From IMG/VR virus record IMGVR_UViG_3300047476_000521, positions 1 through 64,000 of that record: DNA of 64,000 nt. One strand, 5' to 3'. The notes below the pieces were generated by a model. That model worked only from the letters and a program-made list of their open reading frames with translations, had not been told where the DNA came from and ran no database searches. Below are positions 41 to 27,242 of the stretch, in pieces (within the stretch, counting starts at the first letter, position 1; each line of letters starts with the position of its first letter). This stretch comes from a virus. Both the position numbers and the translations under genes were made by a program.

Positions 41-67
41 AAAAATGGGGAGCCGTTAAGCTCCCCA
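41..67 (-). terminator. Rho-independent terminator after the putative holin
   Basis: GGGGAGC/GCTCCCC inverted repeat next to an A-run (U-tract on the - strand). Confidence 0.7.
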
Positions 68-73
68 GATTAA

Positions 74-313
74 TTATTCGTCAGCCTTTGGTGGCTCTGT
101 CATAATGGCGTTATGAACTGTGGTGATCTGTGTAAGAAAACGCATGAAAGCCATGATAAGAGCCGCTACTAAACCAGCAGCAGGAACTACCATATTCTGA
201 GGAACTCCCCAGCTTCCAAGAACAGAGACCCAGTCAACTCCTGATACCTTTTCGGTGATAGCAGGTAGAAAAGCCATTAAAAACGCAACAAGATATGTCT
301 TATATCCTAGCAT
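74..313 (-). CDS. small two-TM membrane protein, putative holin
   Basis: ATG at 313 with AAGGAG SD; two hydrophobic segments (YLVAFLMAFLP, VVPAAGLVAALIMAFMR); late-promoter-like CATAAATA at about 352-359. Confidence 0.5.
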   Translation of the reverse strand: MLGYKTYLVAFLMAFLPAITEKVSGVDWVSVLGSWGVPQNMVVPAAGLVAALIMAFMRFLTQITTVHNAIMTEPPKADE

Positions 314-354: not shown

Positions 355-798
355 TTATGATTCGATCCACTTTCGGATACGATCGATATATGCTTCCTTC
401 TCGTCAGCAACATAATCTTTTCCTAAGAAGTTGCCTTTACTATCTCTTTTAGGATACTTATAGATACGATCCTCAACAGGTCCATACTTGTTCACCATTT
501 CAAACACTCTTGGTAGAATGTAGAAGTTTAGAAAAGCAGGATCGTGAATCTTGTTTTCAACCGACTTGTATGGTCTGCCTGCGAGATATGCCCGAGCAAG
601 AAACGTTGCACGGTTCTCATTACGAACGTCCCACTTACGGTGATTGCTGATTGATCGATACTTCTCGATTAGTTTGCGATCAGGTGTTCCTTGATCGCAT
701 TGCCATCTGATTTGCTTTTTGAGTTTGTGCTCCTCATGACGAATGACTTTTGCTTCTAGTCCGAGGTGCTTTGATTTGATTTTTAGTTCAATACTCAT
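355..798 (-). CDS. phage hypothetical protein (MSIELKIKSKHLGLEAKVIRHEE...)
   Basis: ATG at 798 with AAGGA SD; open frame; can be extended upstream through a TAG-interrupted leader. Confidence 0.75.
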   Translation of the reverse strand: MSIELKIKSKHLGLEAKVIRHEEHKLKKQIRWQCDQGTPDRKLIEKYRSISNHRKWDVRNENRATFLARAYLAGRPYKSVENKIHDPAFLNFYILPRVFEMVNKYGPVEDRIYKYPKRDSKGNFLGKDYVADEKEAYIDRIRKWIES

Positions 799-867
799 TT
801 GTGTTTCCTTTTGTTTGACTGGTTCATAAAATGAAGACAAAAGGAATTTTGGTGGTGATCTAGAAAC

Positions 868-891
868 CTAACGAAAAAAATTCTTGAACAT
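868..891 (-). CDS. 7-codon leader ORF MFKNFFR ending in TAG, in frame with the downstream gene
   Basis: GAAAGGA SD, ATG at 891, TAG at 870-868, frame continues as VSRSPPKF... into 355..798. Confidence 0.6.
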   Translation of the reverse strand: MFKNFFR

Positions 892-915
892 TGTTGTATC
901 CTTTCATGAAGTAAT

Positions 916-989
916 TGGCGCCCCTAGTGGGAATTGAACTCACATTGGTCGTTTTAGAGACGATTGCATTGCCATTATGCTATAGGGGC
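916..989 (-). tRNA. amber suppressor tRNA (anticodon CUA)
   Basis: 74-nt cloverleaf: acceptor GCCCCTA/TAGGGGC, D arm GCAT/ATGC, anticodon loop CTCTAAA, T loop TTCAATT, G73 plus encoded CCA. Confidence 0.85.
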
Positions 990-1120: not shown

Positions 1121-1720
1121 ATGCATATTTATAATACGCCTTATACATATCTTATTGGTTGGACCGAACACGACAAGTGGTATTACGGTTCTCAATATGG
1201 CAAAAAAGCTAATCCTTCAAATTTATGGAAAACATATTTCACTTCTTCTAAACATGTAAAAAATTTTAGAGAAAAATATGGCGATCCGGATATAATCCAA
1301 ATAAGAAAAATATTTGAAGCATCTGAACAATGCAGAGAGTGGGAATACAAAGTTCTTCGTAGATTAAAAGCTAAACAAAAAGAAAAATTTTTAAATAAAA
1401 CAAATAGTAAAGGTATTTCCAACGAAGAAATGTTACTGCTAGGTAAACATCCTTCTCAAAATATAGATGCAAGGAAAAAAATTAGCTTATCGAATAAAGG
1501 TAGATTAGTTGGAGACAAAAATCCATCAAAAAGAGAAGATGTTCGTGAGAAATTAAGAAGACCTAAATCAGAAGAATGGAAAAGAAAAATTTCTGAATCT
1601 TCAAAAAACAGAAAAAGGCTGACATGTCCTTATTGCAAAAAACAACGTCAGCCTCAAATTTATAACAAACATCATGGAGAAAATTGTAAACTTAAACCTT
1701 CTCTGTGCGAAGAACTCTGA
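1121..1720 (+). CDS. GIY-YIG (Seg-like) free-standing endonuclease with NUMOD3-like repeats and C-terminal Zn finger
   Basis: YTYLIG...WYYGS, E(x)KVL and FLNK motifs; KSEEWKRKISES; CPYC...HHGENCK. Confidence 0.8.
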   Translation: MHIYNTPYTYLIGWTEHDKWYYGSQYGKKANPSNLWKTYFTSSKHVKNFREKYGDPDIIQIRKIFEASEQCREWEYKVLRRLKAKQKEKFLNKTNSKGISNEEMLLLGKHPSQNIDARKKISLSNKGRLVGDKNPSKREDVREKLRRPKSEEWKRKISESSKNRKRLTCPYCKKQRQPQIYNKHHGENCKLKPSLCEEL

Positions 1721-4646: not shown

Positions 4647-5453
4647 ATGGCTCGTGCCCGTAAGATTGACAACGTTATCCCGCTGCCTTCCTCTAACGAG
4701 AGCGACGATCAGATCGAGCGCCGTATCGCTGAGCGATTTGAAGTGCTGGATTTTCTGGCTCAGAATTGCATCGAGGGTCATTCTCGAGCTGCTATTATTT
4801 CTGGTTCTCCTGGCGTTGGTAAAAGCTACGGTATTATGCGTATGCTAGAAGAGTACGATCCTAGCGGTAATCAGTATACCATCGTCAAAGGTTACAGTCG
4901 TGCAACAGGAATTGTAAAGCTTCTGTATCAGTTTCGTCATCCAGGTAACATTATTGTTTTCGACGATTGCGACAGCGTTTTCTCTGACGATATTAGTCTC
5001 AATCTGCTCAAAGCGGTAGTGGATACTTGCGATCGCCGCCGTGTTTCTTGGTTGAGCGAAGGTAAGCTTCTCGACGAGGATACTGGCGAGTTGGTCCCCC
5101 GTCACTTTGATTTCGAAGGTTCAGTTATCTTCCTGACAAATCTAGATTTTGACGCCATGATCGCTCGTGGTCATAAACTCGCTCCTCATCTGGAAGCTCT
5201 GCAGAGCCGTGCGCATTACCTTGACTTGACGCTCAAGAGTGCGAAAGATAAGATCATTCGTATTCGTCAGGTTGTGCTTCAGGGACTGCTCTCGCATCTT
5301 GACCTAGATCAGCAGGTCGACGTTCTTACTTTCGTCGAAGCTTACTACGAGAATATGCGAGAGTTGTCTCTTCGTGCTGTTATTAAGTTGGGCGCTCTAC
5401 GTGCTAACAACGATAACTGGTCGAAGATCGCTCGCATTACTATGCTGAAGTGA
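4647..5453 (+). CDS. P-loop (AAA+-like) ATPase
   Basis: Walker A GSPGVGKS, Walker B IIVFDDCD, sensor VIFLTN; own promoter TTGACT...TATAAT at 4592-4620. Confidence 0.85.
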   Translation: MARARKIDNVIPLPSSNESDDQIERRIAERFEVLDFLAQNCIEGHSRAAIISGSPGVGKSYGIMRMLEEYDPSGNQYTIVKGYSRATGIVKLLYQFRHPGNIIVFDDCDSVFSDDISLNLLKAVVDTCDRRRVSWLSEGKLLDEDTGELVPRHFDFEGSVIFLTNLDFDAMIARGHKLAPHLEALQSRAHYLDLTLKSAKDKIIRIRQVVLQGLLSHLDLDQQVDVLTFVEAYYENMRELSLRAVIKLGALRANNDNWSKIARITMLK

Positions 5454-6005
5454 TTTGCATTTGCTTCCATGGCATTTACCATAAACTGGCGCTGTTACCG
5501 TTTTGCCACAATGTTCACACGTCTTTGGTTTGTAGTTAGGATTATCTGCGAAGAAACGTGCTGATCTTTTTGGTCTAGATGCTGCAGCGCCTTTTTTACC
5601 GTTATCGCTCTGTATATCTGAGCGTAGAAATGGGTGAGAGCCATCTTGTAATTGTTTGGCGATATATTGTTTGTGTAATTCTGGATTAGAAAAATTATGA
5701 ACGCCTCGTTCTATCTGATCTTGAACAGCAATTCTAGAAATGTCGCTCAATTCTTTACTGCTGAGAGATTGATGCATTCTTTTTGCTATTCTAGAAGCAG
5801 AGCCAATGTCGCCTTGATCTAGATGTATTTTAAAATGTTCTTCTATAGTAACTAATTGTAGATTGTTTATGTCATTGTTCTTGTGGTCTCCATCTATATG
5901 ATGGATCTCGTAAGAACGTCCGTGTTCATCTTTTGGGATTGGACCGTAATATTGTTCGTATATACGGCGATATGTGCGGCTGTGAGTGCGTTTATAAGTA
6001 GTCAT
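5397..6005 (-). CDS. HNH free-standing endonuclease with C-terminal Zn finger
   Basis: EIHHIDGDHKNNDINNLQLVTIEEH; CEHC...CHGSKCK. Confidence 0.85.
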   Translation of the reverse strand: MTTYKRTHSRTYRRIYEQYYGPIPKDEHGRSYEIHHIDGDHKNNDINNLQLVTIEEHFKIHLDQGDIGSASRIAKRMHQSLSSKELSDISRIAVQDQIERGVHNFSNPELHKQYIAKQLQDGSHPFLRSDIQSDNGKKGAAASRPKRSARFFADNPNYKPKTCEHCGKTVTAPVYGKCHGSKCKSLQHSNASDLRPVIVVST

Positions 6006-26515: not shown

Positions 26516-26706
26516 TAAAGGAACTGATCATACTGGCGCAGGTGGCTAATACAATTCCTCCTGCTGACATTATGAGAAATGACATTCCGACTTATTCATG
26601 GGAAAGGCCAACACAGCCACCGAGATATCAAGTTCCTGCTACTGGTATTTACTCGGCAGGATCTAGACCTCCTCCGATTTCGTTTGAAGAGGTTGAAGTA
26701 GAATAA
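26512..26706 (+). CDS. hypothetical protein
   Basis: coupled ORF. Confidence 0.5.
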   Translation: MIKELIILAQVANTIPPADIMRNDIPTYSWERPTQPPRYQVPATGIYSAGSRPPPISFEEVEVE

Positions 26707-26713
26707 ATAGAAT

Positions 26714-27025
26714 TGCCAAAGGTCGTTGAGAGACGAAACATAGGTTTCTTGGACGTGGGTGCGATTCCCACCGTCTCCACCATGGATACATTCAACCATA
26801 CACACCTGGTGCTAACTAGGTTGCGCAGCCGAAAAGACGTAGAGAAAGAGTCTGTTAGCGGAATGTATCTTTGATGGGGACGAACAGGTTCGACAGGATT
26901 CAGTAAGGTCGTAAGGAGACTGTAGGCATTTATAGGTGCAAACGATAACTTCGCACCATTTGAGATGGCACTAGCTGCTTAATCTCATTGGGTTGGCAAC
27001 TTCCTAGAAACAGAATAGTTGCTTT
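26714..27025 (+). ncRNA. ssrA: circularly permuted two-piece tmRNA, tag (A)ANDNFAPFEMALAA
   Basis: acceptor piece ending CGTCTCC-ACCA at 26782 precedes GGGGACG at 26876 (G3.U70 alanine identity); tag reading frame 26938-26982; outer ends approximate. Confidence 0.9.
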
Positions 27026-27044
27026 TTTCATTTTGGAGTTTATA

Positions 27045-27242
27045 ATGACCGATCAAAAAGACAAATACACCGGCATGCGTGAGTTTAATTTTGCATTGAG
27101 CACTAATGTCTATATCTGTGCAGCAGCAGGAGCTTTTCTAGGAGCAATTCTAGGTTATTGGGCGACAGGATTAGTAGAGATCTCTGTAGCTTCGTCAATC
27201 ACTTTCTTAGTTCTTTCTGGTATCTTTGGGATGTTTGTGTAA
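27045..27242 (+). CDS. small two-TM membrane protein
   Basis: GGAG SD, hydrophobic. Confidence 0.65.
   Translation: MTDQKDKYTGMREFNFALSTNVYICAAAGAFLGAILGYWATGLVEISVASSITFLVLSGIFGMFV

Follow-up and report, generated by a model that had tools for sequence, protein, structure and literature searches.

Why should a phage that keeps the standard genetic code carry a transfer RNA (tRNA) whose anticodon matches a stop codon, with a small, stop-interrupted reading frame close behind it? The question is raised by the IMG/VR virus record IMGVR_UViG_3300047476_000521, whose whole contig (herein G000) measures 136,102 bp at 38.9% G+C and whose first 64 kb, positions 1 to 64,000, form the stretch under study here (herein the window). 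On its minus strand, the window encodes in succession a tRNA with the anticodon CUA, a short leader open reading frame (ORF) that is interrupted by an in-frame TAG (herein the gate) and continues to a Pro-Pro pair, and an unannotated gene for a protein of 147 residues (herein X). The source is a freshwater, T4-like phage, and the arrangement of tRNA, leader and X is common to more than 100 related phage sequences. Judging from comparison of these sequences, we think that the module is probably a readthrough-gated translational attenuator, in which decoding of the gate by the adjoining tRNA would allow a ribosome to reach Pro-Pro, to pause there and to free the Shine-Dalgarno sequence (SD) of X from a hairpin.

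A stop-gated leader between a suppressor tRNA and gene X

The tRNA (positions 916..989; 74 nt, class I) was identified by ARAGORN and scores 61 bits against the general tRNA model of Rfam, RF00005, for which the cut-off is 29. It has the acceptor stem GCCCCTA/TAGGGGC with a G1:C72 pair, G as discriminator and an encoded CCA, and its anticodon is complementary to a stop codon, as in a suppressor tRNA; the label 'Pyl' that ARAGORN attaches to it derives from the anticodon alone, and the tRNA fits the general model. The start codon of the leader (ATG, 891..889) sits 24 nt past this CCA and is preceded by an SD-like AAAGGA (899..904). The pre-gate ORF (871..891; ATG TTC AAG AAT TTT TTT CGT) encodes MFKNFFR and is followed by the gate TAG as the eighth codon (868..870), by a G, and hence a purine, in the +4 position, and by VSRSPP (850..867), whose Pro-Pro pair (CCA CCA, 855..850) lies 57 nt before the start of X. 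All of these features are on the minus strand. Past the gate the frame reads VSRSPPKFLLSSFYEPVKQKETQ, extending 17 codons beyond VSRSPP and running in frame into the ATG at 798 with which X (355..798, minus strand; MSIELKIK...) begins and which has an AAGGA SD of its own. An earlier, sequence-only reading of the window had proposed that these parts form a readthrough switch, with an arrest motif of the R-x-P-P type, or yield an N-terminally extended isoform of X; the tRNA(CUA), the SD-led ATG at 891, MFKNFFR-TAG-VSRSPP and the frame shared with the ATG at 798 all lie where it had placed them.

We assembled loci containing relatives of X from IMG/VR, from JGI and ENA metagenomes, from GTDB genomes and from two GenBank phages. 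Ten of the resulting 164 loci (window included) are cut at the 5' end, and the 154 that were analysed reduce to 108 distinct 130-nt upstream regions; a subset with 50 distinct leaders and segments is referred to below as the viral set. The same parts recur in the same order in 103 of the 108 regions: an SD (an SD-like motif precedes the leader start in 102 of the 103), a start codon, 0–11 further codons, a gate stop, 2–17 codons (about 80 in one lineage) and Pro-Pro. The spacing is also conserved: 27 of the 50 viral-set leaders share the commonest interval between gate and Pro-Pro, 3 codons, and Pro-Pro precedes the start of X by 53–99 nt in the 103 regions, by 53–71 nt in the 50 viral-set segments and by about 99 nt in Synechococcus phage BUCT-ZZ01. 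Four further regions hold gated variants, one with two TAGs (L137) and three with the ends RDGPS-stop (L073), RDSPN (L167) and RDGPN (L179). The double-amber leader of L137 (560-660) reads MNYEKIRGLPV-TAG-VS-TAG-KIREPP-stop and is a natural counterpart of the 'multiplexed UAG' by which the response of synthetic switches is sharpened (excerpt of PMC6412442). Both cultured phages with X also carry the module, namely BUCT-ZZ01 (host field Synechococcus elongatus PCC 7942), with MGGDAS-TAG-INLKPP-stop, and roseophage DSS3_MAL1, with MKS-TAG-IRPPP-stop; the record of the latter has no host field, and from the phage name we take its host to be Ruegeria pomeroyi DSS-3. Both of these hosts are laboratory strains that can be manipulated genetically. 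Among cellular genomes, the 185,579 GTDB species representatives contain one match to X, on a 156-kb contig of a metagenome-assembled genome, and the module is present there. Upstream of relatives of X, then, the tRNA(CUA), the SD-led ATG, the in-frame TAG and an end resembling R-x-P-P do occur together, as a conserved switch would lead one to expect.

The gate codon is TAG in 101 of the 103 leaders and TGA in two, and it is never TAA. It is followed by A in 69 leaders, G in 24, C in 9 and T in 1, so that 93 of the 103 have a purine, which after UAG is a context long known to favour amber suppression. The base after UAG also affects its recognition by release factor 1 (excerpt of PMC6412442). 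The Pro-Pro pair is encoded by 13 different codon pairs, and the leaders comprise 83 distinct peptides. A stop comes directly after Pro-Pro in 85 leaders and after one intervening codon in 6, and in the other 12 it is at least three codons away; the 91 stops within one codon of Pro-Pro are TAA (69), TGA (15) and TAG (7). The residue before Pro-Pro is K in 28 leaders, R in 26, G in 13 and H in 7, and the ends include RAPP (L101, IRAPP-stop), RGPP (L092, IRGPP-stop; L008; L098), RDPP, K/R/H-PP and RDGP. The motif noted in the window is hence retained in its Pro-Pro, but what is conserved is not a strict R-x-P-P; it is Pro-Pro with a stop, where the preceding residue is usually one of K, R, G and H. 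As a control for chance, we took every CCNCCN in G000 and sought the first in-frame stop within 20 codons upstream: it was TGA in 125 cases, TAA in 114 and TAG in 57 (296 cases with a stop), and 173 cases had none, compared with 48 TAG, 2 TGA and no TAA as the first in-frame stop before Pro-Pro in the 50 viral-set leaders. Varied proline codons combined with a conserved gate, stop and purine context show selection on what the ribosome reads and on the peptide, and not on the DNA sequence.

The gate follows the anticodon of the tRNA upstream. By ARAGORN, 79 of the 108 regions have a tRNA(CUA) upstream of X on the same strand, and 2 have a tRNA(UCA); four further CUA tRNAs have the anticodon in an odd 6-nt loop and 5 more are found by a relaxed pattern, and the median distance from the 3' end of the tRNA to X is 121 nt. 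The two tRNA(UCA) loci, L086 and L098, are the only two TGA-gated loci among the 103. The X genes of L098 (UCA/TGA) and L092 (CUA/TAG) are 94% identical in DNA, whereas their tRNA-plus-leader segments are 56% identical, which argues that tRNA and gate were exchanged here as one cassette. This correspondence of codon and anticodon, together with the retention of the module in homologues, supports the idea of a readthrough switch that the window had suggested. L369 has a further TGA-gated leader, with a flank too short to show its tRNA. In one contig (L016:2186-3000, the same contig as L083) an ORF of more than 200 codons lies between the tRNA(CUA) and a minimal leader, TTG-TAG-IIKPP-TAG, so the leader can persist with 815 nt between it and the tRNA.

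The suppressors themselves are uniform in part. All 44 distinct sequences have G1:C72 and an encoded CCA, and the discriminator is A in 35. The tRNA(CUA) of the window has no close isoacceptor in its own genome, the best match being 68% to a 77-nt tRNA labelled Leu(CAA). An assignment of origin or of amino acid was considered and dropped, the nearest non-suppressor types of the 44 being scattered over 17 types. The tRNAs of G000 that ARAGORN labels Leu(UAG) and Leu(CAA) (C1:108713-108789 and 109134-109210) are 77 nt long with short variable arms, unlike bacterial leucine tRNAs, which belong to class II. Odd anticodon loops occur at the suppressor position of L060 (886-959), L064 (222-297), L067 (942-1017), L165 and L318; some are 6-nt loops such as CCCUAA (ARAGORN '(ct)') and one is an 8-nt loop ('ccta'), and all of them precede ordinary TAG-gated leaders.

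A hairpin over the Shine-Dalgarno sequence of X and its possible use

The conserved link between the leader and X is a predicted anti-SD hairpin, which the sequence-only reading did not notice. In the window, the 5' arm (TTCCTTTTGT, 837..846, minus strand) starts 4 nt after the Pro-Pro codons and the 3' arm (ACAAAAGGAA, 805..814, minus strand) contains the SD of X; both arms are found in the minimum free energy (MFE) and centroid structures, and the 5' arm is also supported by the arm-swap test described below. The shared reading frame is the more local feature: the leader joins X in frame in the window, in the L001/L022 contig (X 96% identical) and in L103 (88%), but in the other relatives it stops before X, lies in another frame or ends in a TGA that overlaps the ATG of X. 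The extended isoform that had been suggested for the window would therefore be at most a local by-product of the window and its two closest relatives. A trpL-type transcription attenuator was also considered and rejected, as a terminator scan found no terminator-like site between 798 and 891 and it is the SD of X itself that forms the 3' arm.

For the viral set, the MFE structure of 47 of the 50 distinct segments has the SD of X paired with the stretch at or after Pro-Pro (median z -2.8; z below -2 in 39 of the 50, against mononucleotide shuffles), and in the remaining three an anti-SD word can be seen by eye just 5' of the Pro-Pro codons. The stems are wholly different between subfamilies (TTCCTTTTGT/ACAAAAGGAA, CCTAAATTGG/CCAATTTAGG and TCTCCTTGAT/ATCAAGGAGA). 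A fixed criterion for SD pairing is satisfied by 46 of the 50 segments and by 61 of 192 ordinary gene starts in G000, and because this control rate is high we added an alignment-free arm-swap test, in which the -85..-31 interval of each of 107 loci was paired with the -24..-1 interval of the same or of another locus. The mean energy is -13.4 kcal/mol for cognate duplexes and -7.8 kcal/mol for non-cognate duplexes (Mann-Whitney p 1.6e-50), and the cognate partner ranks in the best 5% for 84 of the 107 loci; the two arms hence co-vary. An RNAalifold consensus fold of 24 leaders gave no pairs because the 5' arm stands in different registers across the subfamilies, and the arm-swap test was used in its place.

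We hypothesize that release factor 1 and the suppressor tRNA compete at the UAG gate. Without the suppressor tRNA, ribosomes would terminate at the gate with their footprint about 12 nt short of the hairpin, and X would be mostly silent; where the charged suppressor tRNA wins, the ribosome would run 4 more codons to Pro-Pro, pause and cover the anti-SD arm, which would leave the SD of X free for other ribosomes to start X. The output of X would then be proportional to the working suppressor tRNA of the phage, and any ribosome that continued past Pro-Pro would, in the window and its two closest relatives, also enter X in frame, as a local side effect. Comparison of the sequences shows the parts with their order and spacing, selection on the peptide, the agreement of gate and anticodon and the co-variation of the two arms; charging of the tRNA, decoding of the gate, the pause at Pro-Pro and the limit set by the hairpin on translation of X are the steps that we infer. 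A ribosome covers about 15 nt downstream of its P site, which we assume here as well, and it would reach to about 858 with TAG in the A site and to about 837 with the second proline codon in the P site; with the arms at 846..837 and 814..805, only ribosomes past the gate could open the stem, given this footprint. A pause is what the motif would predict, since a C-terminal Pro-Pro hampers termination and arrests ribosomes in all contexts tested (excerpt of PMC3834316), and RAPP and RGPP give robust arrest that is unrelieved by elongation factor P (EF-P) (excerpt of PMC12992588).

Several observations weigh against such an attenuator. In the window sequence alone the leader pattern could be chance, and the case rests on the relatives: taken by itself, the window hairpin has an MFE of -10.5 kcal/mol and a z of -1.08, with 31 of 200 dinucleotide shuffles folding as well, and the criterion for SD pairing is loose enough to be satisfied by 61 of 192 ordinary genes too. 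Pro-Pro in the window leads on to Lys in place of a stop, and the RSPP there is not among the motifs tested for arrest in the excerpts of PMC3834316 and PMC12992588. Eighteen of the 108 regions have no upstream suppressor by ARAGORN and the relaxed pattern, 13 of them with less than 1000 nt of flank; for three of the 18 (L073, L078 and L079) a suppressor is present by Rfam or by eye, and L058 and L100 have no suppressor tRNA within 1.2 kb. At L145, the one region of the 108 without a leader, the tRNA stands 23 nt before X. The correspondence of TGA with tRNA(UCA) rests on only two independent cases. ATT, a rare start codon, directly follows the gate in 43 of the 103 leaders, where re-initiation following termination at the gate could hence take place. 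Finally, in five distant loci (L366-368 and L370-371; X 39–43% identical) R-S-P-P or R-G-P-P is encoded in the +1 frame of an ATG-AAC-TGA mini-ORF, which could reflect a frameshift, four-base reading of TGAA or decay, and the record containing L368, which is 61% complete, has 28 tRNAs but no suppressor. The mini-ORF of these five loci (ATG-AAC-TGA-ATA) lies about 60–110 nt before the start of X.

Which other explanations would account for the same arrangement? Termination followed by re-initiation is a close variant of the attenuator with the same logic: ribosomes that read through the gate would terminate after Pro-Pro and re-initiate at X, the hairpin would bring the stop nearer to the start, and X would still depend on readthrough, with a pause that is not essential. 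The stop directly after Pro-Pro in 85 of the 103 leaders agrees with this, as does the L002 group, whose leader ends in a TGA overlapping the ATG of X, a classic signature of coupling; however, the 47–65 nt between stop and X start in most loci are long for re-initiation, and an invariant Pro-Pro written in 13 synonymous codon pairs is left to explain when the effect known for this motif is to slow termination (excerpt of PMC3834316), so that we regard the variant as plausible but unlikely. It is also conceivable, with a slim chance in our estimation, that the leader senses host release factor 1 or 2, EF-P or ribosome rescue, the tRNA being only a constant competitor. Readthrough is indeed a competition between tRNA and release factor, Pro-Pro pauses are generally dependent on EF-P (excerpt of PMC12992588) and the phage encodes a transfer-messenger RNA (tmRNA), but a gate codon that changes with the tRNA, and a tRNA that usually lies directly upstream (at the median distance given above), mark the tRNA as the matched input. 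Such sensing and the attenuator are not mutually exclusive.

The remaining explanations fit the data far less well. That amber readthrough serves to make an N-terminally extended isoform of X is very unlikely, as the in-frame leader that favours it in the window, the L001/L022 contig and L103 is limited to these three very close relatives (X 88–96% identical), and elsewhere a stop or another frame intervenes. Recoding of the phage, with TAG as a sense codon and the leader as an ordinary small gene, is suggested by gut phages with a recoded TAG, the best-known carriers of suppressor tRNAs among phages, but it is highly improbable for G000: under the standard code (table 11), 192 greedily chosen ORFs cover 90.6% of the genome and end in TAA (111), TGA (57) and TAG (24), a convincing interruption by TAG is seen in no gene of G000, neighbouring genes with starts of their own account for the two long in-frame extensions past a TAG, and N-terminally gated ORFs show no excess of TAG (17, as against 19 for TAA and 22 for TGA). 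The G000 genome is not recoded, and the leader is the only clear client of the suppressor tRNA that is visible in this phage. We give almost no credence to a chance ORF in the spacer, or to a hairpin that is a signal for tRNA processing or transcript stability; the leader and hairpin of the window alone are statistically ordinary, but the synonymous proline codons, the invariant gate, the 83 different peptides, a 3' arm that always holds the SD of X and the arm-swap test all contradict this.

Gene X, a second gated family and their surroundings

What, then, would be gated? X is a basic protein (isoelectric point 9.75; median 9.83 over 41 relatives) whose relatives form 966 clusters at 90% identity and 2570 clusters at 50% identity and are named 'hypothetical protein' only; with this many clusters, and with members in two cultured phages, the family is a large one. 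Searches of Pfam, PHROGs and the PDB (by sequence profile), of the PDB by Foldseek and of the ESM Atlas gave no match. The AlphaFold2 model (predicted local distance difference test score, pLDDT, 92; predicted template modelling score, pTM, 0.80) predicts an antiparallel helical hairpin of 70 residues and, after it, a small alpha/beta portion built from a third helix, a beta hairpin and a final helix. VIA-align returned generic helical hairpins only (best Z 7.8 over residues 1-75, which is not diagnostic); its matches to the tRNA-binding arms of seryl- and valyl-tRNA synthetases were set aside as belonging to the same generic, undiagnostic class. Most of the residues that do not vary are K, R, H, N or E and sit on the two long helices. 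In many phages, X lies inside tRNA arrays. The basic charge, the conserved residues and the position in tRNA arrays suggest a role with RNA or the ribosome. No longer fused forms of X were found, which is weak evidence. Two gene calls of X, P0030 and P0038, have long N-terminal extensions containing FPAAPV or FPPPPV; these extensions may be leaders that are joined to X in frame, as happens in the window.

A second gated family came from the lineage with the long interval between gate and Pro-Pro. In L058, L074 and their relatives, this interval holds a conserved protein of about 80 residues (herein Y; L058:895-1149, L074:877-1140, and viral contigs L183-L262), which in the L058/L074 lineage ends in Pro-Pro-stop and replaces the short leader before X; a whole protein between gate and Pro-Pro argues that ribosomes must translate past the gate. 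Y is beta-rich, without known fold or family, and its relatives form 1816 clusters. In 63 of 65 distinct viral loci the Y gene consists of an SD, ATG, 1–7 further codons, TAG (codon 3–9) and the conserved body, with A in the +4 position in 61 of the 63. A tRNA(CUA) lies at most 900 nt upstream of Y in 31 of the 66 rows listed, often 24–39 nt before the SD, and the majority of such Y genes lack a Pro-Pro end and do not lie before X. Gated Y genes beside tRNA(CUA) suggest that the amber gate is a more general device in these phages, with X gated by way of a leader and hairpin. Where the gate is expected, Q appears in some database gene calls of Y, which may reflect either a real CAG or a TAG called as Q. 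G000 has no homologue of Y (best tblastn E 0.68).

We tentatively extend this to the physiology of the phage, as a speculation that is less likely to hold than to fail. The suppressor tRNA may serve as an orthogonal signal and dedicated regulator, not for recoding; readthrough may be a self-test of the phage, that is, a checkpoint or timer that licenses a few gated genes, and X a protein that acts on the translation apparatus. As no host tRNA would read the gate, readthrough would report that the tRNA of the phage has been transcribed, processed, charged and accepted by the ribosome; X would be gated through the leader and Y directly at codon 3–9, and X, as a basic protein with a helical hairpin encoded in tRNA arrays, would target, for example, host tRNAs or termination.

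The surroundings of the module are those of a tRNA-rich phage. Besides T4-like proteins of the baseplate, the tail and the gp32 type, the G000 contig has genes for 30 tRNAs and for a permuted tmRNA of the two-piece type (window positions 26690-27073, plus strand; tag ANDNFAPFEMALAA). The tmRNA of BUCT-ZZ01 (L020:3385-3803) lies about 500 nt downstream of its X gene. As pauses at Pro-Pro-stop are classic tmRNA substrates, tmRNA and Pro-Pro-stop leaders may be linked. The next gene after X in the window (74..313, minus strand; from the ORF list, no family match) encodes a 79-residue hydrophobic protein and is possibly on the same transcript, the likely end of which is marked by a terminator-like hairpin with a T run (46..67, minus strand; terminator scan); in relatives, tRNA genes (Gly-UCC and Thr-UGU) and not this gene come after X. 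Two homing-endonuclease-like genes match the homing, intron-like and HNH endonuclease families of PHROGs, one just upstream of the tRNA(CUA) on the opposite strand (1121-1720, plus strand) and one at 5397-6005 (minus strand). A promoter scan gave nothing convincing before the tRNA(CUA), and megablast of the first 3 kb of the window against the phage collection gave no match. A 184-nt freshwater metatranscriptome contig is identical to window positions 645-828; the library may hold DNA and the contig shows neither strand nor level, and we draw no inference from it.

Relation to known regulatory leaders

Leader peptides that pause the ribosome and thereby free a hidden ribosome-binding site are well known, and to our knowledge all described natural examples sense amino acids, drugs, or secretion and membrane insertion. 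The nearest of these are the monitoring arrest peptides, such as SecM-secA, MifM-yidC2 and ApdA/ApdP/ApcA (excerpts of PMC7897499, PMC10951233 and PMC12992588), which share with the phage module a small, proline-rich upstream ORF directly before the regulated gene and an SD-sequestering hairpin, which in the phages would be within reach of a paused ribosome. The phage relatives have RAPP, RGPP, RSPP, RDPP and RDGP as candidate arrest cores, to be compared with the RAPP-like cores of the Apd and Apc peptides. The SecM and RAPP-type leaders, however, sense the pulling force of secretion or insertion, whereas the input of the phage leader is not such a force: outside the Y-containing lineage the leaders have 1–12 codons before and 2–17 codons after the gate, with no signal or membrane segment and no hydrophobic stretch. 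The phage leaders are also short (10–20 codons), have an arrest site that would be reached only through stop readthrough by the adjoining tRNA, and in most cases stop directly after Pro-Pro. The phage leader would work like a monitoring arrest peptide but is not a member of that family.

The termination pause of YbeL-PP (Hayes, Bose and Sauer 2002, as cited in an excerpt of PMC3834316) involves the same Pro-Pro-stop that ends 85 of the 103 leaders; there it is a quality-control problem that is solved by tmRNA, whereas the pause of the phage leader would be apparently deliberate, and the window has Lys after its Pro-Pro. Among phages, the recoded lineages (crAss-like, Lak and others) share with the module a phage-encoded tRNA(CUA) or tRNA(UCA), which has been proposed to time gene expression, but they have many in-frame stops in late genes, whereas G000 keeps the standard code. 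If the attenuator proposed here is correct, it may explain why phages with the standard code keep suppressor tRNAs, namely to gate a few chosen genes and not to recode the proteome.

A stop codon that controls output from within an early reading frame has a precedent in prfB, the gene for release factor 2, which is autoregulated by a +1 frameshift at an early in-frame stop and thereby senses the release factor that it encodes. As in prfB, the early in-frame stop of the phage leader would sense its own decoding and set downstream output, but it would be read by a suppressor tRNA, and the regulated gene would be a separate cistron that is controlled by way of the hairpin. Our search of the full-text literature, with subscription journals mostly outside it, gave no description of a leader that is gated by a stop in nature and adjoins the suppressor tRNA of a phage. 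We found the same logic of sensing suppression only as a synthetic design: in switches that respond to unnatural amino acids, a TAG in a leader and an orthogonal suppressor tRNA turn on a downstream gene (excerpt of PMC6412442). Those switches are engineered and act on transcription, via Rho or tna, whereas the phage module is natural and would act on translation initiation. With arrest and attenuation leaders already known, the new element would be the input, that is, stop-codon suppression by an adjoining tRNA, and the matched pairs of tRNA and gate (UAG and UGA), together with their compact modules of pause and hairpin, could serve as natural orthogonal switches.

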